A model generated the notes under the pieces. The model worked only from the letters and a program-made list of their open reading frames with translations, had not been told where the DNA came from and did not search any database. Of a stretch of 64,000 bases of DNA, positions 9,325 to 31,890 are shown one piece after another (positions within the stretch are counted from its first letter, which is position 1; each line of letters opens with the position of its first letter). Made by a program: the position numbers and the translations under genes. Location: assembly GCA_964510515.1 (NCBI GenBank), contig CAZEAU010000010.1:9586-73585 (forward strand), given 5' to 3'. The DNA is from an uncultured Actinomycetota bacterium (GTDB lineage Bacteria; Actinomycetota; Geothermincolia; Geothermincolales; RBG-13-55-18).

Positions 9325-10506
<1,182 letters not shown>

Positions 10507-21049: not shown

Positions 21050-21619
21050 ATGGGCATGGAGGTTGATCCCAAGCCGACGGATTTTGTAGATTATAAGGCG
21101 GTCTTCTCGCAGGCCCTCACCCTGGTGGGTAGGGGCGCCAGCGTTTCCGAAGCGCTCGAGTCCTGCCTCAAGCGGAGCTACCCCCTCACCTACACGGAGA
21201 TGCTCGCCGAGGCGAGGGGCATCGTCTCCCGCCTGCGGCGGGAACGGGAATGGGGCCCCCTGCGCACGCTGCGGGAGCTGGCGGACAAACCGGGGCTGGC
21301 CGACCGCATGCGCAGGCCCGCCGCGCAAGGCGCGGCCCCACCCGCACGCACGTCGCAGCGCCCCGACGCCATCGCCGATTTCCCCCGCATTTTCTTGCTC
21401 GCGCAGCAGCGGCGCCAGGCGGGTTTCTCCCTGGACGACTCCCTGGAGATGGCCGTGCGCGAGCTCTATCCCCATACCTATCGCAAGGTACTGGAGGCGG
21501 CGCGCTTCTACGTGGGCCTGGCGGCGCGCGTGCGCGGCGAACACGAGCTGCGCGCCCTGAGGGAGCTCGCGGAGGACCCGCGCATCTTCACTTCCCTGGA
21601 GGATTCGCCCACGGAATGA
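21050..21619 (+). CDS. hypothetical protein with internal tandem duplication (two ~75-aa helical repeats)
   Basis: Repeat 1 (...LESCLKRSYPLTYTEMLAEARGIVSRLRREREWGPLRTLRELADKP) and repeat 2 (...LEMAVRELYPHTYRKVLEAARFYVGLAARVRGEHELRALRELAEDP) are clearly homologous. No recognised family. Confidence 0.5.
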   Translation: MGMEVDPKPTDFVDYKAVFSQALTLVGRGASVSEALESCLKRSYPLTYTEMLAEARGIVSRLRREREWGPLRTLRELADKPGLADRMRRPAAQGAAPPARTSQRPDAIADFPRIFLLAQQRRQAGFSLDDSLEMAVRELYPHTYRKVLEAARFYVGLAARVRGEHELRALRELAEDPRIFTSLEDSPTE

Positions 21620-21703: not shown

Positions 21704-22147
21704 ATGGGCAAGGATACGGGCCGGGAGAGGGAATGGGGGCGCCGCCTGCTGGGCGTCCTGCTTGGCATCACCGGGCTGGGTACCGCCACCTTCTGGATCC
21801 TCTTCTTCTCGGGAAGGATCAAGGCCACGGAGACGGAACAGGACGAGGCTTTCGAGCGGTCTTTCCCGGTCGCCGACTCGTGGATGAGCGCCCTGTGCAT
21901 GCTTGCCGCCTGGCACCTGTGGCGGGGAGAGCGCGAGGGCGCTTTCCTGGGGACGGCGGCGGGGAGCTCGCTCGTCTTCCTGGCGCTGCTGGACATCCTC
22001 TATGGGCTGGAGAACCGCAAGTATTGGCCCCTGGACAGCGACCGCTCCACCATGCTGGCCATCCACCTCTGGGCCCTCGGCCTGGGCTGCACGACCATGG
22101 TGCGGCTGTGGAGGGATTACATGGCCGAGAGCGGCGGGCGCGCTTGA
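21704..22147 (+). CDS. hypothetical small integral membrane protein (about 4 TM helices)
   Basis: Hydrophobic stretches LLGVLLGITGLGTATFWILFF, WMSALCMLAAW, SLVFLALLDILYGL and LAIHLWALGLGCTTMV. Start uncertain: the track start is a GTG at 21629 and the first ATG is 21704. Confidence 0.35.
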   Translation: MGKDTGREREWGRRLLGVLLGITGLGTATFWILFFSGRIKATETEQDEAFERSFPVADSWMSALCMLAAWHLWRGEREGAFLGTAAGSSLVFLALLDILYGLENRKYWPLDSDRSTMLAIHLWALGLGCTTMVRLWRDYMAESGGRA

Positions 22148-22192: not shown

Positions 22193-23485
22193 TCATTTCA
22201 TTGCGGTCGGCTTCTTCGCCGGCTTCGCGGCCGGCTTCTTGGCCTTCTTCGCGGCCGCCCCGGCCTTCGCCGCGGGCTTCCTCCCGCCAAGCGACCCCGC
22301 CGCCTTCTTCGCCGCCGACCCCGCCGCCTTCTTCGCGCGCTTCGGCTTCGCCTCCTTCTCCTCCAGCAGGCTACTGGCGGGCATGCCGCACACCTGCTTG
22401 CCGTCCCTGCCCTCGGGGCAGTGCTCGATGAGGAAGCGCGACACGGCGGGGGCCAGCTCCTTCTGAGAGCGGGAGCTGACATAGATGCCTATATGCCCGC
22501 CCGGAAAGCTGTACAGCGTCTTGTCCTCGCTGCCCACCAGGTCGTTTAAGGGTATGGAGGAGGCGGGCGGCACCAGGTGGTCCTCGGTGGCATAGATATT
22601 GAGCAGGGGCATGGTGATGTTCGCGAGGTCCACGCGCCGCTCCCCGATCATCAGCTCCCCTTTCACCAGCTTGTTCTCCTGGTAGAGGTCCTTGAGGAAC
22701 TTGCGATAAGCCTCGCCGGCCTGCGCCGGGCTGTCGAATATCCACTTCTCCATGCGCACGAAATTGGCCACCGTGGCCGGATCGTCCAGGTTGTCCATGA
22801 GGCCCACGTACTTATCCACCATGAGCTGGAAGGGCTTGAGCATGAGGAAACCCACGTTCATGAACTCGCCCGGGATGATGCCCATGGTGTCCACCATGTT
22901 GTCGATGTCCATGTGCTGGCTCCACACGTTGAGCAAGCCGTCCGTGGTCTGGAAATCCACCGGGGCGACCATGGTGATGAGGTTGCGTATCTTCTCCGGG
23001 TAGAGGGCGGAATAGATGATGCTGAAGGTCCCGCCCTGGCATACGCCGAGCAGGTTGATCTGTTCGCACCCGCTGCGCTCGCGCACGAAATCGACGCAGC
23101 CGTCGAGGTAGACGTCGATATAGTCCTCCATGGTGACGTAGCGGTCACCGTGGTCGGGATACCCCCAGTCGATGATATAGATGTCCAGCCCCTGGCCGAG
23201 CAGGTTGCGGATGAGGCTGCGGTCCGACTGCAGGTCCATCATGTACTGCCGGTTGACCAGGGCGTAGCAGATGAGGATGGGGGTGGGGCAGGCAAGAGCC
23301 TCGCCCGGGAGGTAGTGGTAGAGCTTCATCTTGTCCTCTTCGAAGACCAGCTCCTTGGGGGTCGGCTCCACCTCGACGTCGCTGATGGTGGTGAGTATCT
23401 CGGTGCCCTTGACCAGCTTGCGGTTTATGTCCTCCAGCTCCTGCACGAAGAAGCCGGGGTCCATGAATTCTCTCAGCATGCTCAT
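22193..23485 (-). CDS. phaC: class III poly(3-hydroxyalkanoate) synthase PhaC with a ~75-aa Lys/Ala/Pro-rich C-terminal tail
   Basis: Very close to Allochromatium-type PhaC (ICYALVNRQYMMDLQSDRS...DWGYPD...lipase box GVCQGG...MEKWIFDSPAQAGE...FPGGHIGIYVS). Starts at MSMLREF with a GGAGGAGGG RBS. The tail EKEAKPKRAKKAAGSAAKKAAGSLGGRKPAAKAGAAAKKAKKPAAKPAKKPTAMK is absent from canonical PhaC. Confidence 0.85.
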   Translation of the reverse strand: MSMLREFMDPGFFVQELEDINRKLVKGTEILTTISDVEVEPTPKELVFEEDKMKLYHYLPGEALACPTPILICYALVNRQYMMDLQSDRSLIRNLLGQGLDIYIIDWGYPDHGDRYVTMEDYIDVYLDGCVDFVRERSGCEQINLLGVCQGGTFSIIYSALYPEKIRNLITMVAPVDFQTTDGLLNVWSQHMDIDNMVDTMGIIPGEFMNVGFLMLKPFQLMVDKYVGLMDNLDDPATVANFVRMEKWIFDSPAQAGEAYRKFLKDLYQENKLVKGELMIGERRVDLANITMPLLNIYATEDHLVPPASSIPLNDLVGSEDKTLYSFPGGHIGIYVSSRSQKELAPAVSRFLIEHCPEGRDGKQVCGMPASSLLEEKEAKPKRAKKAAGSAAKKAAGSLGGRKPAAKAGAAAKKAKKPAAKPAKKPTAMK

Positions 23486-24600
23486 CCCTCCTCCCCCGCT
23501 CCCGTGAGCTCCTTGACCTCCGCCTTCAGCGCGCGCACATCGCGCTTCAGGCGGTCCACCGCCTTGTAGAGGTGGTCCATCTCCGAGCGGTTGGGAAAGG
23601 GCAGCTCCTTGGTGGCTTCCTCCACGTAGGCCTGGAAGTCGCGCCGGAACTGCATGCCCTTGTCCACGAGCTGTCCCTGCAGGCGGGAGAACTCCTCGGT
23701 ACGGAAGAGATCGATGTACAGCTCCTCGCTCGTCTCCCACCACAGGCGGTAGAGGTCGCGGAAGGACATGGGCTCCGCCGTGCCCTCCGCCTGCAGTGAG
23801 CCCAGTTTCCGCTGCAACACCTCGAATGACCTGGCGCCCGCCCCCTGCAGCGCGGCGTAGAACTCCGAGAGGACGATGTTGAACTCCGCGAGCGAGTCCA
23901 CGGTATAGCGCAGCTTCTCCGCCGCCTCACGGTAATAACCCATGGCCGGGGCGCGCAGCAGGCGGCCGAAGCTCTCCTCGTAGGCCTTCTTCCAGGCCCC
24001 GTAGGCCTCCACCGTGCCCTCGGGGGAGAGCTTCTCCATGCTCATGGCGCGGTCCACCATACGGCGTCCGTATTCGTACCAGGGCGACCACAGGTGCACG
24101 AGCAGCCCGGAGGCGAGGAGGGGGATCTCGCCGTCGTAGAGCTCGGCTATCCACTGCAGCTGGGGGGGCAGCGCGGGCGCGAACACCTTCTGCACGATCT
24201 CCCGGTACTGCCCCGACCACTTCTCCAGCACCTCTTTGACGGCGTTGAAATCGTACTCCCCGCCCTCGCCGGCGGCCTTGCGGTAGGCCTCGAACATCTC
24301 CACCCACATGGCATGGAGTCGCGCATACACGTCCGCGGCCTGAAACATCTTGGCGTACGCGTCCGGGCCGATGCCGCCCGCGGGCGGGGTGAACCTCGCC
24401 GTCATCTCCTGCACGGAATCCATCCACCTGCGGTAGAGCTCGCTGGCGTCGGGCTCCGGCCTGCCGTCCGGCCTCTCCCCTCCCTGGCCCCACCCTCCGG
24501 CCATACGCGTCCAGGCGTCCATCCATCCCTTGAACATCTCCGCCTGGGCTTCCTGCCACTTCTTCCACACATCCGAGTGGCTATCGGTCCTCTCCGGCAT
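23482..24600 (-). CDS. phaE: class III PHA synthase subunit PhaE
   Basis: 372 aa, Trp-rich. Conserved blocks versus A. vinosum PhaE (LRAPAMGYYREAAEKL..., ...FRTEEFSRLQGQLV..., ...FPNRSEMDHLYKAVDRLKRDVRALKAEVKEL). Its stop overlaps the phaC start (ATGA). Confidence 0.8.
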   Translation of the reverse strand: MPERTDSHSDVWKKWQEAQAEMFKGWMDAWTRMAGGWGQGGERPDGRPEPDASELYRRWMDSVQEMTARFTPPAGGIGPDAYAKMFQAADVYARLHAMWVEMFEAYRKAAGEGGEYDFNAVKEVLEKWSGQYREIVQKVFAPALPPQLQWIAELYDGEIPLLASGLLVHLWSPWYEYGRRMVDRAMSMEKLSPEGTVEAYGAWKKAYEESFGRLLRAPAMGYYREAAEKLRYTVDSLAEFNIVLSEFYAALQGAGARSFEVLQRKLGSLQAEGTAEPMSFRDLYRLWWETSEELYIDLFRTEEFSRLQGQLVDKGMQFRRDFQAYVEEATKELPFPNRSEMDHLYKAVDRLKRDVRALKAEVKELTGAGEEG

Positions 24601-24621
24601 GGGTCATCTCCTTCTACGCGC

Positions 24622-24891
24622 CTACTCCTTCGCCAGCAGCTCCTCCATCTTGCGCAACCCCTCCTCGAGGTTGCGGCGGAACTCCTCGCGTCCCTTGCGC
24701 ATGTTCTCCAGCCACTCCTGCAGGACCTTCTCTCCCTCCTTCTGGAGATCTCCGCCCTGGTCCAGCAGCGTCTTCCACAGTTTCTCCGTCTGCTCCTGCA
24801 CCGAATTCATGGCATCAAAGGACATGAGCATACCGGAGCGCATGCCCTCCAGGACCGTCTTCTGCATCGTCTTCGCATCCATCTCCCTCAC
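24622..24891 (-). CDS. phasin-like small coiled-coil protein (PHA granule-associated / regulator candidate)
   Basis: 89 aa, highly charged alpha-helical (EKLWKTLLDQGGDLQKEGEKVLQEWLENMRKGREEFRRNLEEGLRKMEELLAKE), 21 nt upstream of phaE. GTG start with G-rich RBS. Confidence 0.5.
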   Translation of the reverse strand: MREMDAKTMQKTVLEGMRSGMLMSFDAMNSVQEQTEKLWKTLLDQGGDLQKEGEKVLQEWLENMRKGREEFRRNLEEGLRKMEELLAKE

Positions 24892-25131: not shown

Positions 25132-26133
25132 ATGAACGGAGAAAACCTCTACGAGAAGCTGTCGGAACGCATACTCACCAAGGGGAGCAGGTTCGTGCCG
25201 GACCTCTTCCGCATGGTCGCCGACGAGGAGGAGGCGCGCATCATGCTCGCCACGCCCGGCACGGCGGAGGAGCTGGCCGCCAGGCTCGATTGCGCCGTGG
25301 GGGAGGTGGAGGAGAAGCTCGCCACGCTGTACCGCAAGGGGCTCATCTTCAAATCGGACAAGCCCCAGGGCACCCTGTACCGCATGGTGCGCGACATCAC
25401 CCAGTTCCACGACGCCACCATCCTCTGGGAGGGCGCAAGCCGGGAATACCTCGACCTCTGGAAGCGACAGACCCGGGAGGAGCTGCCCGCGTATATCAAC
25501 ATGGTGAGCATGATCGCCCCCAAGCCCTTCACCCGGGTGGTGCCCGTGAACCAGCCGGTGGAGGCGCGCCAGAGCATACTCGCCTTCGAGGACGTCGAGC
25601 GCATGCTGCGCGATGCGGGCAGGCTCGCGGTGGCCAGATGCACCTGCCGCCTCGTGGACGGTGCCTGCGGGAAGCCCCTCGAGGTATGCCTGCAGCTGGG
25701 CAGGGGGGCCGACTATGCCATCGACCGCGGCAGCGGCCGCGAGGTGACCTTTGAGGAAGCCCTGGATATCATCCACATGGCGGAGGAAGCGGGGCTGGTC
25801 CACGTGGCCATGAACAAGGCCTACGGCAGCAATATCATCTGCAACTGCTGCGGGGACTGCTGCATAGCCTTCGGGCTGCCCATACCCTCCAGCGCCATCG
25901 TCGACCCCAGCCGCTTCCTGGCGGTGGTGGACGGGGAGTCCTGCAACGGCTGCGCCACCTGCGTCGAGCGCTGCCTCTTCGAGGCCATCGCCATGGAGGA
26001 GCTCGGCGGGGGAGAGGTGGCTATGATCGCCGCGGAGAGATGCATGGGCTGCGGGCTCTGCCAGGTCACCTGCCCCGAGGAAGCCATCTCCATGCGGGCG
26101 GTACGCGAGGAGTCCTTCGTCCCCGACCTCTGA
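25132..26133 (+). CDS. 4Fe-4S ferredoxin-domain protein with additional Cys-rich motifs
   Basis: Starts MNGENLYEKL with an AGGAGGGA RBS. Two CX2CX2CX3C(P) motifs (CNGCATCVERC, CMGCGLCQVTCP), plus CTCRLVDGAC and CNCCGDCC clusters. The upstream half of track ORF 24094..26133 is antisense to phaE. Confidence 0.6.
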   Translation: MNGENLYEKLSERILTKGSRFVPDLFRMVADEEEARIMLATPGTAEELAARLDCAVGEVEEKLATLYRKGLIFKSDKPQGTLYRMVRDITQFHDATILWEGASREYLDLWKRQTREELPAYINMVSMIAPKPFTRVVPVNQPVEARQSILAFEDVERMLRDAGRLAVARCTCRLVDGACGKPLEVCLQLGRGADYAIDRGSGREVTFEEALDIIHMAEEAGLVHVAMNKAYGSNIICNCCGDCCIAFGLPIPSSAIVDPSRFLAVVDGESCNGCATCVERCLFEAIAMEELGGGEVAMIAAERCMGCGLCQVTCPEEAISMRAVREESFVPDL

Positions 26134-27348: not shown

Positions 27349-28263
27349 TCAGGTAAGGTTCATCTTGCCCAGGATGAGACCGGCGTGCTCGGTGGCGCCT
27401 CCCACCGTCTGGGCTCCCTCCAGGCTGGTTATCTTGTCGATGTTCTCGTCGATCATCTCCAGGGTGATGGGCTCCTTCTTGACGTCGAAGAGCACCCCCG
27501 GCCCCTCCATGAAGGCGGTGCGGCTGAAATAGCCTCCGCCGGCCACGAAGATGCACCCGGAGAAGCTGTTCTTCTCGGAGCAGGCCCAGCCGACGATGGG
27601 GGATACGTACTCAGGCTTGAGCACCTCCAGCATCTGCGGGGGCATCACCGTCGCGGTCATGCGCGTCCCGGCGACGGGGAGGATGGCGTTGGCCAGGATG
27701 TTATACTTGGCGCCCTCCTGCTTGAGGACGTGCATGAGTCCGACGATGCCCATCTTGGCCGCCCCGTAGTTGGCCTGCCCGAAGTTGCCGTATACGCCGG
27801 CCCCCGAGGTAGCGGCGATGATGCGGCCGTAGCTGTTCTCGCGCATGTGGGGGAAAGCGGCCTTGCAGCAGAAGAAGGTGCCGTTGAGGTGCACGGAGAT
27901 GACCTTCTCGTAGTCCTCCATCTCCATCTTGATGAAGCTCTTGTCGCGCAGGATGCCGGCATTGCTGATGAGGATGTCGATCTTGCCGAAAGAGTCCAGG
28001 GCCGTCTGGATGATGTTCGAGGCCCCTTCCCAGTCGGCGACGCTGTCGAAGTTGGGAACCGCCTCTCCCCCGGCGTCCTTGATCTCCTTACAGACCTCCT
28101 CCGCCGCGGTGTGCCCCGAGCCGGTGCCGTCGAAGGCGCCCCCCAGGTCGTTGACCACGACCTTGGCCCCGCGGCTGGCAAGGAGCAAGGCGTATTCCCT
28201 ACCCAGGCCGCCGCCGGCCCCGGTCACTACTGCGACGCGGTCATCGAATCTTACCTCCGCCAT
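27349..28263 (-). CDS. SDR-family (3R)-hydroxyacyl-CoA dehydrogenase (MFE-2 / HSD17B4 dehydrogenase-domain homologue)
   Basis: MAEVRFDDRVAVVTGAGGGLGREYALLLASRGAKVVVNDLGG...NAGILRD...YGRIIAATSGAGVYGNFGQANYGAAK aligns closely with the N-terminal dehydrogenase domain of peroxisomal multifunctional enzyme 2. AAGGAGAAGG RBS. Confidence 0.8.
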   Translation of the reverse strand: MAEVRFDDRVAVVTGAGGGLGREYALLLASRGAKVVVNDLGGAFDGTGSGHTAAEEVCKEIKDAGGEAVPNFDSVADWEGASNIIQTALDSFGKIDILISNAGILRDKSFIKMEMEDYEKVISVHLNGTFFCCKAAFPHMRENSYGRIIAATSGAGVYGNFGQANYGAAKMGIVGLMHVLKQEGAKYNILANAILPVAGTRMTATVMPPQMLEVLKPEYVSPIVGWACSEKNSFSGCIFVAGGGYFSRTAFMEGPGVLFDVKKEPITLEMIDENIDKITSLEGAQTVGGATEHAGLILGKMNLT

Positions 28264-28778
28264 AGACCTTCTCCTTTCCTTCCTCGGGGGTGCGCCCCCC
28301 ACGCTGTTTCCTGTCTCGCCTGCACCCAGCCCGCCATCGCGAGCAAGGCCGACGCTGAGTTGATGGCCCTGTTAGAACACGATACCCGCCGCCCGGGTGG
28401 CCCTATCATTATATACCCGATCCTACAACCCGATCCCGCCTGGCTTGCTTCCGCCGACGCCGCAAGCTCCCGCCCGGCTTTTCGATATTACCATATCGCT
28501 GGGGCAATATCATACCCGCTGCCTCCGCGGGCGCGCCGACCCGCGTTCACCGCGGGCGCCCCCCGCCGCATGATCGATACCCGGCCCGCCGAAACGGCGC
28601 CTGAGCCCTGCCTCCGGGGCAGATCCGCCTTGCGCGCTGCGACCATATCCGGGCCGGCCGCGGCGGCAGCGGGCCTGTCTTGCAGCGTCCTTATGCTTCA
28701 TAATGTCTGGGGCGCCTGCCTTCCCCGCCGGGAGAGGGTGGGCGCGGCAGACATCCGCCGCACACCCGGGAGGGAGAT

Positions 28779-30387: not shown

Positions 30388-31110
30388 ATGGGTCTCTTCG
30401 ATCAGCCCCTGGCAGAGATCAGGGCCCGCATAGAGGGCTGGTACCGCGATGGGACGGCGAGGGAACTGCCCTTCACCCCGGTGCTGCCCCACGCGGGTGA
30501 TGCCCAGGTCATATTGAGCGAGGATACCGGCCTGGAGTTGGGGAACCCGGGCACGGCCTCGCGCTCACTGCTGCTTTGGGATGCGGAGGAAACCCTGCAT
30601 GACGGGCGCATCACCCTGGTGGGGCCCGATTTCACGCAGGCTCCCTCCTCCAGCCTGCCCTTCGCACAGGTGATCATAGTGAGCGGGGATTTCAGCGACG
30701 AGTACGACTGCTACCGCGACCTGCGTGATGCCATCTACAACGTGCGGCTGCGGGGCTTCATGACCCGCGTCTTTCCGGGGCGGCAGTCCATATGGTGCCG
30801 CATAAGCAGGGAGGCGCTGGCCGGCGGCTTCAGCGCTCAGCTCCTGGGCAGCGCCCTCATGCAGTCCCTCAAGGGACTCGACTTCGTGCGCGGCGTCGAG
30901 GTGCTCTTCGTCACCGCGGGCAAGGAAGAGGTGGACGGGCTCGCGAGCGCGGCGGACAAGGTCATGGACATCGTCGAAGCCCTGATCAAGATGTACGAGG
31001 AGATGAACTTCGACTGCGAGGAGTGCGAATACGTGGAAGTCTGTGACGAGGTGGTGGAATTGAGGCGTATACGCGAAAAGCTCCAGGCGAAGCGGGAAGG
31101 CGGCGGCTGA
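30388..31110 (+). CDS. hypothetical protein with C-terminal CxxCx5C motif, translationally coupled to the CooC-like ATPase
   Basis: 240 aa, no recognised family. C-terminus ...MNFDCEECEYVEVCDEVVEL. The stop lies 3 nt before the next start. Confidence 0.5.
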   Translation: MGLFDQPLAEIRARIEGWYRDGTARELPFTPVLPHAGDAQVILSEDTGLELGNPGTASRSLLLWDAEETLHDGRITLVGPDFTQAPSSSLPFAQVIIVSGDFSDEYDCYRDLRDAIYNVRLRGFMTRVFPGRQSIWCRISREALAGGFSAQLLGSALMQSLKGLDFVRGVEVLFVTAGKEEVDGLASAADKVMDIVEALIKMYEEMNFDCEECEYVEVCDEVVELRRIREKLQAKREGGG

Positions 31111-31113
31111 GCC

Positions 31114-31890
31114 ATGTCCGACGGGGATCGCGGCGGCGCGGGCAAGGTCATCGCCGTATGCGGCAAGGGCGGGGTCGGCAAGACGACCGTCTCCGCGCTG
31201 CTATCGCGCCTCCTGCGCGAGGAGCGGACCTCCCGGGCGCTGGTGGTCGACGCCGACCCGGCCATAGGGCTTGGTTTGGCCCTGAACCGTTTTCCCGAGC
31301 GCACGGTCAACGACGTCCGCAAGGAGATCATCACCGCGGTACGCGAGCGCTCCACCGACAGCCTGGACCTCGCCGCCTCCGTCGATTACAAGATGATGGA
31401 GATAGTCATGGACAGCGGGAACCTCGGCTTCCTCTCCGTGGGACGCCCCGAGGAGGAGGGTTGTTACTGCCAGCTCAACACCCTGCTCAGGGAGGCCATA
31501 GAGACCCTCTCCTCCCACTTCGACATCACCCTTATCGACGCGGAAGCCGGGGTGGAACAGGTGAACCGCCGCGTCATGCGCTCGGTTTCCCACCTGCTGC
31601 TGGTCAGCGATACCACCGTGAAAGCGCTGCGCGTCGCCGAGTCCATCGCCAAGGTGGCCGACGAGGCGGTCGATTACAGGCGTATCGGGCTCATCGTCAA
31701 CCGCGCCCGCGGCGGGGATGAGGCACGGCGCCTCGCCGCACAGGGGGAGCTGCCCTTGCTGGGCTGGATCCCGGAAGACGATACGGTGAGGGAATACGAC
31801 TCCGAGGCCCGGGGCTTTCTGGACATTCCCGCCTGCCCCGCCCTGGAAGCGGTGAGGGCGCAGATTCTCGAGGGCGGTTTCCTCTCCTAG
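31114..31890 (+). CDS. CooC/AcsF-type MinD-family P-loop ATPase (deviant Walker A, CxC metal motif)
   Basis: VIAVCGKGGVGKTT deviant Walker A and a conserved GCYC motif as in CO-dehydrogenase nickel-insertion ATPase CooC. 258 aa. Confidence 0.7.
   Translation: MSDGDRGGAGKVIAVCGKGGVGKTTVSALLSRLLREERTSRALVVDADPAIGLGLALNRFPERTVNDVRKEIITAVRERSTDSLDLAASVDYKMMEIVMDSGNLGFLSVGRPEEEGCYCQLNTLLREAIETLSSHFDITLIDAEAGVEQVNRRVMRSVSHLLLVSDTTVKALRVAESIAKVADEAVDYRRIGLIVNRARGGDEARRLAAQGELPLLGWIPEDDTVREYDSEARGFLDIPACPALEAVRAQILEGGFLS

Follow-up and report, generated by a model that had tools for sequence, protein, structure and literature searches.

Can a polyhydroxyalkanoate (PHA) synthase carry, on its own catalytic subunit, the tail by which its granules would be tied to the nucleoid? 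This question is raised by positions 22193-24891 of a 64,000-nucleotide stretch of DNA from an uncultured Actinomycetota bacterium (positions 9,586 to 73,585 of contig CAZEAU010000010.1, assembly GCA_964510515.1; the whole stretch is referred to here as the window), where a class III phaE-phaC operon encodes a PhaC that runs well past its catalytic core and ends in a Lys/Ala/Pro-rich tail. A preliminary description of this DNA had likened the tail to those of histone H1, AlgP, PhaF and PhaM and had proposed that it could tether nascent granules to DNA. The tail was found to be real and kept among relatives, comparable tails were found on either PhaC or PhaE in other class III loci, and a role as a nucleoid tether was assessed at about an even chance. 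The features of the two synthase genes are as follows.

22193..23485, minus strand: phaC, whole gene, 430 aa, stop codon at 22193-22195
22424..23485, minus strand: phaC catalytic core, residues 1-354, an alpha/beta hydrolase (TIGR01836 profile, AlphaFold2 model)
22385..22423, minus strand: linker, residues 355-367, HCPEGRDGKQVCG, with a two-cysteine motif
22196..22384, minus strand: predicted disordered polycationic tail, residues 368-430, MPASSLLEEKEAKPKRAKKAAGSAAKKAAGSLGGRKPAAKAGAAAKKAKKPAAKPAKKPTAMK, with a basic tract at ~377-430 rich in K, A and P
23482..23485, minus strand: ATGA overlap of the phaE stop (TGA) and the phaC start (ATG), by direct sequence reading
23482..24600, minus strand: phaE, class III synthase subunit E, 372 aa

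The phaE-phaC pair was confirmed as a genuine class III pair joined by an ATGA overlap, as had been described, from the TIGR01836 match of PhaC, the PF09712 match of PhaE and the overlap read at 23482-23485. PhaC scored 512.1 bits against NCBIfam TIGR01836 (class III PhaC, cutoff 365.3), with residues 13-354 aligned to profile positions 8-349 of 350. Its scores with the class I and class II PhaC models were far under their cutoffs. PhaE scored 136.9 bits against Pfam PF09712 (cutoff 25.7) over profile positions 1-311 of 311 and 107 bits against NCBIfam TIGR01834, under the cutoff of 154.95, and is therefore a divergent PhaE. The PF09712 partner adjoins phaC upstream, which is a class III trait as opposed to the class IV PhaC/PhaR arrangement. 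A Shine-Dalgarno-like run, GGAGGAGGG, was found at 23486-23494 directly upstream of the overlap, and gene callers on independent assemblies placed the same boundaries, with the phaC start at the ATGA overlap.

The PhaC core is short (~354 aa) and does not have the long N-terminal domain of classes I and II. It contains the lipase box GVCQGG, with the Cys149 codon at 23039-23041, and Asp302 and His331; the three residues were invariant in an alignment of 72 homologues, and their numbering is identical to that of the catalytic triad of A. vinosum PhaC. The AlphaFold2 model built on the 72-sequence alignment had a mean predicted local distance difference test score (pLDDT) of 85.5, mostly >90 to about residue 355, with residues 338-355 forming the terminal helix of the core. 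A Foldseek search with the model returned catalytic domains of class I PHA synthases (A. caviae, C. necator, Chromobacterium) as best matches; no class III PHA synthase structure was present in the PDB. The core showed 54-56% identity to relatives from Thiocystis, Halochromatium and Ectothiorhodospira and is acidic (net charge -23, isoelectric point (pI) 4.55). Overall, the operon is predicted to encode a functional class III PHA synthase, which would polymerise short-chain (R)-3-hydroxyacyl-CoA. NCBI annotation already names these proteins as class III PhaC.

The preliminary description had placed the end of the core near residue 355 with ~75 residues beyond it, and this agreed with the TIGR01836 profile, which ends at residue 354 and is followed by 76 residues (355-430). 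These 76 residues contain 18 K, 3 R, 20 A and 7 P, with a net charge of +16 and a pI of 10.4, and the positive charge lies in residues 375-430 (56 aa: 17 K, 19 A, 5 P; net charge +16; pI 10.8). The pLDDT drops from 85 to 60 along the linker and is <50 for residues 386-417. High K+A+P content, strong positive charge and predicted disorder, which is the composition of H1/HC2/AlgP-type tails, were thus all found. Canonical AAKP/PAKKA units are few, and the peptide units counted were AAKP (once), KPAA (twice), PAKK (once) and AKKA (three times). The tail DNA consists of imperfect tandem repeats of 12 and 24 nt in 2-4.6 copies. The linker motif [RH]-C-P-x-G-R-D-G-x-Q-V-C-G is specific to the clade and conserved in ~30 of the closest orthologues; its two cysteines could form a disulfide, a metal site or a hinge.

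In principle the extension could be an artefact, produced by a frameshift, an assembly error or the loss of a stop codon, or could belong to a separate gene downstream, a reading that we consider extremely improbable. The identical 430-aa protein was present on three contigs, the NCBI record and two independent Logan assemblies (SRR17676820 and SRR17676816). The in-frame GC content at third codon positions (GC3) was 0.947 in the tail and 0.901 in the core, so that the pattern is unbroken through the tail, and dozens of orthologues carry in-frame tails. Of the two refuting findings named beforehand, a frameshift or assembly error was rejected and a separate downstream ORF (open reading frame) was not found in the relatives examined, and no K-rich ORF lay downstream of phaC in the tail-less relatives L001 and L084. 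Two observations favour the artefact reading: the tail of homologue P0055 looks frameshifted, and a conserved Lys-Met-Lys that opens the basic tract in 22 of the 32 orthologues could hold a relic initiator codon. Against a relic start, relatives differ in whether the internal ATG has a Shine-Dalgarno-like sequence ahead of it, and the window lacks this ATG. The artefact reading is essentially refuted, and the tail can be taken as real, in frame and conserved.

Lys-Met-Lys (AAG ATG AAR) stands at the start of the basic tract in orthologues P0003-P0025, and its DNA was read in L085 (at ~2600), L086 and L087; L085 and L086 have a Shine-Dalgarno-like AGGAG or GGGGAG ahead of it, and L087 has none. 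The motif could mark an internal start or be what is left of a small fused gene; the methionine is missing from the window's own tail. P0055 (440 aa, ENA) ends in 75 residues that read like a P0003-type tail out of frame (net charge +2, Arg/Glu/Gly-rich), probably because the metagenome contig contains a frameshift from sequencing or assembly.

Homology searches with the window's tail returned no match at E≤10 in Pfam and NCBIfam, including PF07382 (HC2), NF038052 and NF038053, no chain among the PDB sequences and nothing in a database of 5.8 billion proteins. Orthologous tails gave weak sub-threshold matches to HC2 and H1-like models (24.8 bits, cutoff 40, and 20.8 bits, cutoff 80). No PF05597 or TIGR01837 domain was found in PhaC. 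A claim of homology to H1, AlgP, PhaF or PhaM is therefore not possible, and the tail is not a member of these families. The proposed likeness to them thus holds for composition and falls away for homology. By analogy, PhaC would work like PhaF or PhaM while lying outside their families, the tail here being joined to a catalytic core. No other K/A/P-rich stretch was found in any frame of the 64-kb window.

Conservation of the tail was assessed by calling a basic tail at ≥10 residues with a net charge of ≥+4, and a long basic tail at ≥40 residues and ≥+8. A survey of homologues, which the preliminary description had asked for, showed a basic C-terminal tail in 104 of 119 PhaC homologues, and all 32 orthologues with ≥88% core identity had a long basic tail. 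Mean identity among the same 32 was ~40% in the tail compared with 91% in the core. Orthologous tails ranged from 29 to 76 residues and from +5 to +23 in net charge, some of them made of clean 8-residue repeats, and repeat number differed between near-identical orthologues (e.g., 3 versus 5 SKAKKPAA units). Composition and charge were kept while sequence and repeat number turned over, the pattern left by selection on the composition, and not the sequence, of a disordered region. One further relative had a short acidic PhaC end without a downstream K-rich ORF.

The distribution of tails was then examined over 80 GTDB species representatives with phaC loci, of which 64 had both phaC and phaE readable. 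Long A/K/P(V) tails on PhaC were also found in Gallionellaceae and Nitrosomonadales, and short basic PhaC tails in Nitrospirota, low-GC Bacillota and Syntrophales. The occurrence of basic PhaC tails in low-GC Bacillota, Nitrospirota, Syntrophales and Gallionellaceae shows that they are not an artefact of GC content. In Chromatiaceae, Ectothiorhodospiraceae, Lysobacterales and many others, PhaC ends 1-3 residues past the core, which bears out, for the PhaC of Chromatiaceae-type relatives, the statement that characterised class III synthases do not have the tail. Many loci with a tail-less PhaC showed a basic A/K/P-rich tail on PhaE instead, after the end of PF09712. PhaE tails were verified in four loci (listed below), were also seen in L040, L065 and L054, and reached ~110 residues and a net charge of +23.

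L012, 2689-2949: PhaE tail of ~110 residues, deltaproteobacterial metagenome-assembled genome (MAG)
L028, 2688-2930: PhaE tail, actinobacterial MAG
L055, 2786-2986: PhaE tail, Micavibrio
L070, 936-1085: PhaE tail, Caldilineaceae

Among the 64 loci, 17 had a tail on PhaC only (18 when the PhaC of the window is added), 26 on PhaE only, none on both and 21 on neither. In these loci a PhaEC complex has a tail on one subunit at most, never on two. Strict K/A/P-rich segments within 3 kb of the 80 phaC loci were located almost only at the C-termini of PhaC or PhaE. A literature search for lysine-rich tails of class III PhaC or PhaE found no paper, within an incomplete coverage of the literature.

Long PhaC tails in Thermoleophilia, Lysobacteraceae, Thioalkalivibrio and Competibacter, suggested by tblastn matches to query residues 400-429, were rejected because the alignments ran through stop codons. 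Inspection of such false tails (L007, L040, L065, L060 and L049, with GC-rich DNA and a tail-less PhaC) is what revealed the PhaE tails. Read-through tblastn matches can mimic tails, which calls for caution in automated surveys of low-complexity extensions.

A second kind of C-terminus was found at the same site in distant class III PhaCs. The helix-hairpin-helix (HhH) model HHH_5 scored above the Pfam cutoff at the PhaC C-terminus in P0130 (28.3 bits), P0150, P0165 and P0189, and was sub-threshold in P0124 (24.1 bits) and P0166. P0130 and P0124 are class III PhaCs that do not look halophilic; two papers describe the HhH on PhaC as exclusive to haloarchaea or absent from bacteria. An HhH-like C-terminus was also found on PhaE in L078, a Chromatiaceae MAG (25.2 bits). 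A folded HhH may replace the electrostatic tail where salt would screen it, as a solution compatible with high salt. Separately, L051, an uncultured Cytophagaceae MAG, has a 186-aa PhaC tail with a GIGP-type motif by eye.

Taken together, the PhaC tail of the window may be a nucleoid tether in cis, with DNA as its ligand and granule positioning as its outcome, both by inference; this is the reading that we favour, at about an even chance. The growing polyester chain would stay covalently bound to PhaC and keep the synthase on the granule surface, and a PhaEC complex with several PhaC copies would cause the granule to present several polycationic tails. These would attach, whatever the sequence, to the phosphate backbone of the chromosome, so that nascent granules would be tied to the nucleoid, spaced apart and passed to both daughter cells. 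The synthase itself would then do in cis what PhaM, PhaF and PhaH do in trans. DNA is proposed as the most economical common ligand because two chemically different non-specific DNA binders recur at the C-termini of class III subunits, and the polycationic tail on PhaE where PhaC is tail-less gives comparative support that also points to DNA. The published tethers PhaM, PhaF and PhaH and the PAKKA-tailed Ku would support it by analogy. The weak HC2/H1-like matches of orthologous tails and the concentration of K/A/P-rich segments at PhaC and PhaE C-termini were also counted toward DNA.

Several points weigh against the tether. The argument rests on composition and analogy, since the window's tail matches no DNA-binding family, and polyphosphate (as with AlgP), RNA and acidic lipids are also ligands of polycationic disordered tails. 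Since PhaC (-23) and PhaE (-13) form a strongly acidic core, the tail could act within the complex. As counted above, 21 of the 64 loci had no tail on either subunit. The exclusivity of PhaC and PhaE tails (Fisher test, nominal p = 2.5e-5, with crude tail-calling thresholds) is not independent evidence, because a neighbour-joining tree of the cores places most of the difference between the two states at a single deep split (at least 7 changes for each state), and the independent events are thus few. In addition, the PhaC of Ca. Solincola quzhuomuensis (L001/L003, 1762-2832; 86% core identity) is tail-less: it ends in RCPR, the conserved membrane-protein gene that converges on it follows 16 nt later, and there is no compensating ORF; the tail is thus either dispensable or compensated elsewhere in that genome.

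Three other roles were weighed. The tail could act in the complex or on the granule surface, folding onto or bridging the acidic PhaC and PhaE cores, and might thereby adjust oligomerisation, the lag phase or activation (PhaM is an activator of PhaC1), or how granules pack and coalesce. A tail of +16 beside PhaC at -23 and PhaE at -13 (sum -36) fits such a role, as does its placement on either subunit of the same complex; PhaM is both activator and tether (PMC13052382), and the C-terminal extension of haloarchaeal PhaC is reported to be needed for full activity (10.1101/693432). It fails, however, to explain an HhH DNA-binding domain at the same site, including acidic haloarchaeal-type tails of opposite charge, and tail lengths from 12 to >100 residues argue against specific docking, so that we regard it as unlikely. 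The same HhH substitutions point to double-stranded DNA and make it distinctly unlikely that the tail binds another polyanion (polyphosphate granules, RNA or anionic membrane lipids) and links PHA granules to it and not to the chromosome. Such binding would suit a purely electrostatic, low-complexity tail without a specific DNA-binding fold, and AlgP, which has the same kind of tail, is described as a tether of polyphosphate granules; the published polyhydroxybutyrate granule tethers of this composition, on the other hand, bind DNA (both PMC13052382).

Replication slippage of GC-rich repeats at the 3' end of the gene could also have produced a selectively neutral low-complexity expansion. The 12- and 24-nt repeats of the tail DNA, the repeat number that varies among near-identical orthologues, the fast sequence turnover and the loss of the tail without replacement in L001 are all expected from such a process. 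Neutral expansion would nevertheless have to account for a positive charge kept in 104 of 119 homologues over several phyla and GC contents, for long basic tails in 32 of 32 close orthologues and no acidic one in the close clade, for the clustering of such segments at the C-termini of PhaC and PhaE, with none elsewhere in the window, and for tails never being on both subunits, and it is judged improbable.

If the nucleoid tether in cis holds beyond the window, self-tethering might be a general class III design: in most lineages the PhaEC complex would have its own polycationic K/A/P tail or HhH as a non-specific DNA-binding module, with PhaC bearing it in one of the two deep clades and PhaE in the second; this wider proposal is tentative, and we lean somewhat against it. 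In such a design, granule initiation and inheritance would be coupled to the nucleoid without adaptors of the PhaM, PhaF or PhaH type, and the fast-evolving repeat number could tune granule number and size.

The arrangement was compared with systems already described. The PhaEC of A. vinosum and Thiocystis shares with the operon the two subunits, the adjacent phaE and phaC, the ~355-residue PhaC core and the GxCxG lipase box. The Chromatiaceae-type PhaC differs in ending just past the core where 76 more residues follow here, and that clade has basic or Ala/Pro-rich tails on PhaE, whereas the PhaE of the window is divergent. Granule-positioning proteins have one granule-binding end and one that binds DNA non-specifically, and granule-nucleoid tethering is known for PhaM (Cupriavidus necator) and PhaF (Pseudomonas putida), which have histone-like tails, and for PhaH (Caulobacter), which has an HhH (PMC13052382). 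PhaM and PhaF share with the window's PhaC a Lys/Ala/Pro-rich disordered polycationic C-terminal tail on a granule-resident protein and the same proposed outcome. They act in trans, as adaptors or phasins distinct from the synthase, whereas the tail here is fused to the catalytic subunit, has no sequence homology to theirs, contains few AAKP/PAKKA units and is not attached to their type of N-terminal domain.

The claim of an undescribed architecture was too strong, since two earlier cases precede it. The class I PhaC2 of Cobetia and Halomonas has an HC2-like, AAKP-bearing C-terminus; on in silico evidence, Christensen et al. 2021 (PMC8686332) suggested that it anchors granules to the nucleoid in place of PhaM. 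In this PhaC2 and in the window's PhaC alike, the synthase's own C-terminus carries an HC2/H1-like low-complexity extension and the evidence is in silico. PhaC2 is a single-subunit class I enzyme from Gammaproteobacteria, and its extension, far longer, is predicted to be coiled, whereas the enzyme of the window is a two-subunit class III synthase of Actinomycetota with a short, purely disordered tail. The second precedent comes from haloarchaea: an HhH DNA-binding domain at the C-terminus of their class III PhaC was recorded in 2019 and again in 2025, and its function was stated to be 'not known' (10.1101/693432, PMC12028471). This domain and PhaH, which positions granules on the nucleoid, likewise place a non-specific DNA-binding module at the C-terminus, with HHH_5 found in P0150, P0165 and P0189; the haloarchaeal module is a folded domain behind an acidic linker and not a polycationic disordered tail. 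Within the phylum, PAKKA/AKP tails of actinobacterial Ku, HupB and TopA are also Lys/Ala/Pro low-complexity tails in cis on a functional core, and the PAKKA-type tail of M. smegmatis Ku modulates DNA binding (PMC3553676). The cores of these proteins are DNA enzymes or binders, whereas the core here is a polyester synthase without known nucleic-acid function.

The rest of the operon and its surroundings are as follows.

24622..24882, minus strand: small phasin-like ORF, 86 aa from ATG; an upstream GTG at 24891, the end given in the preliminary description, would add 3 residues
26462..27310, minus strand: MFE-2-type hydratase 2 / MaoC, R-specific enoyl-CoA hydratase-like (PF22622, 140 bits; PF01575, 112.8 bits)
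27349..28302, minus strand: short-chain dehydrogenase (SDR), MFE-2 dehydrogenase-like / PhaB-like (PF00106, 151.5 bits)
21704-22147, plus strand: predicted multi-pass membrane protein, 147 aa, convergent to phaC, no Pfam match
21050-21619, plus strand: 189-aa protein adjoining the convergent membrane-protein gene, no Pfam match
25132-26133, plus strand: 4Fe-4S dicluster protein, 333 aa, divergent from the PHA operon and syntenic in relatives
30388-31110, plus strand: CdhC-like fragment of a carbon monoxide dehydrogenase/acetyl-CoA synthase (CODH/ACS) beta subunit, farther from the operon
31114-31890, plus strand: CooC/ParA-type P-loop ATPase, farther from the operon

The three genes of 22193-24891 are co-oriented on the minus strand. 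PhaE has a net charge of -13, has no basic tail and ends in ...KELTGAGEEG. The first gene encodes a small, acidic, helical protein, called at 86 aa in the independent assemblies as well, and is conserved upstream of phaE in six relatives (51-83% identity). The protein scored 21.4 bits against PF05597 (cutoff 28.8), and PF09602 (PhaP_Bmeg) matched four of the six orthologues below threshold (E ~2e-3). With only sub-threshold phasin matches it is termed 'phasin-like', and the earlier label 'phasin' was weakly supported. No meaningful similarity was found between this protein and the PhaE C-terminus.

The neighbouring MaoC/MFE-2 hydratase and SDR plausibly supply monomers, the hydratase providing (R)-3-hydroxyacyl-CoA, as their place beside the operon suggests. 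The 4Fe-4S, CODH/ACS-like and CooC/ParA-type genes are consistent with a Wood-Ljungdahl-type anaerobe. The convergent membrane-protein gene holds the same position in all Solincola-type loci examined. In L084 (3721-4164), L085 (3002-3364) and L087 (3044-3373) an unannotated small ORF lies between phaC and this gene and encodes 109-147 aa of repeated S-G-x-[IV]-A-[VI]-G units; this ORF is absent from that position in the window.

The closest homologues were labelled Actinomycetota, Candidatus Solincola and Geothermincolia. The preliminary description had called the synthase class unusual for an Actinomycetota-like genome. The host is indeed of the Actinomycetota, of Geothermincolia / Ca. Solincola type, but class III synthases are not rare in the deep lineages and were also found in Thermoleophilia, Gaiellales and other MAGs among the GTDB species representatives. 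A literature search for PHA in Geothermincolia found no paper, its coverage being incomplete and no proof of absence.

The main value of these results is a testable generalisation, namely that class III synthases may carry their own tether on either subunit. Granule positioning and inheritance are known only from a few class I and II model organisms with the separate adaptors PhaM, PhaF and PhaH. If the generalisation is true, the minimal granule-organising system would shrink to the synthase alone, and the long-noted, unexplained C-terminal extensions of PhaC and PhaE would gain a function. Changing the length of the tail, or swapping it, would then give engineers of production strains a simple means to set the number and size of granules. 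A tail that acts within the complex would instead bear on the lag phase of class III enzymes and on what PhaE does, which is poorly understood. As a tether, it would add to the repeated recruitment of low-complexity polycationic tails as portable anchors to the nucleoid.

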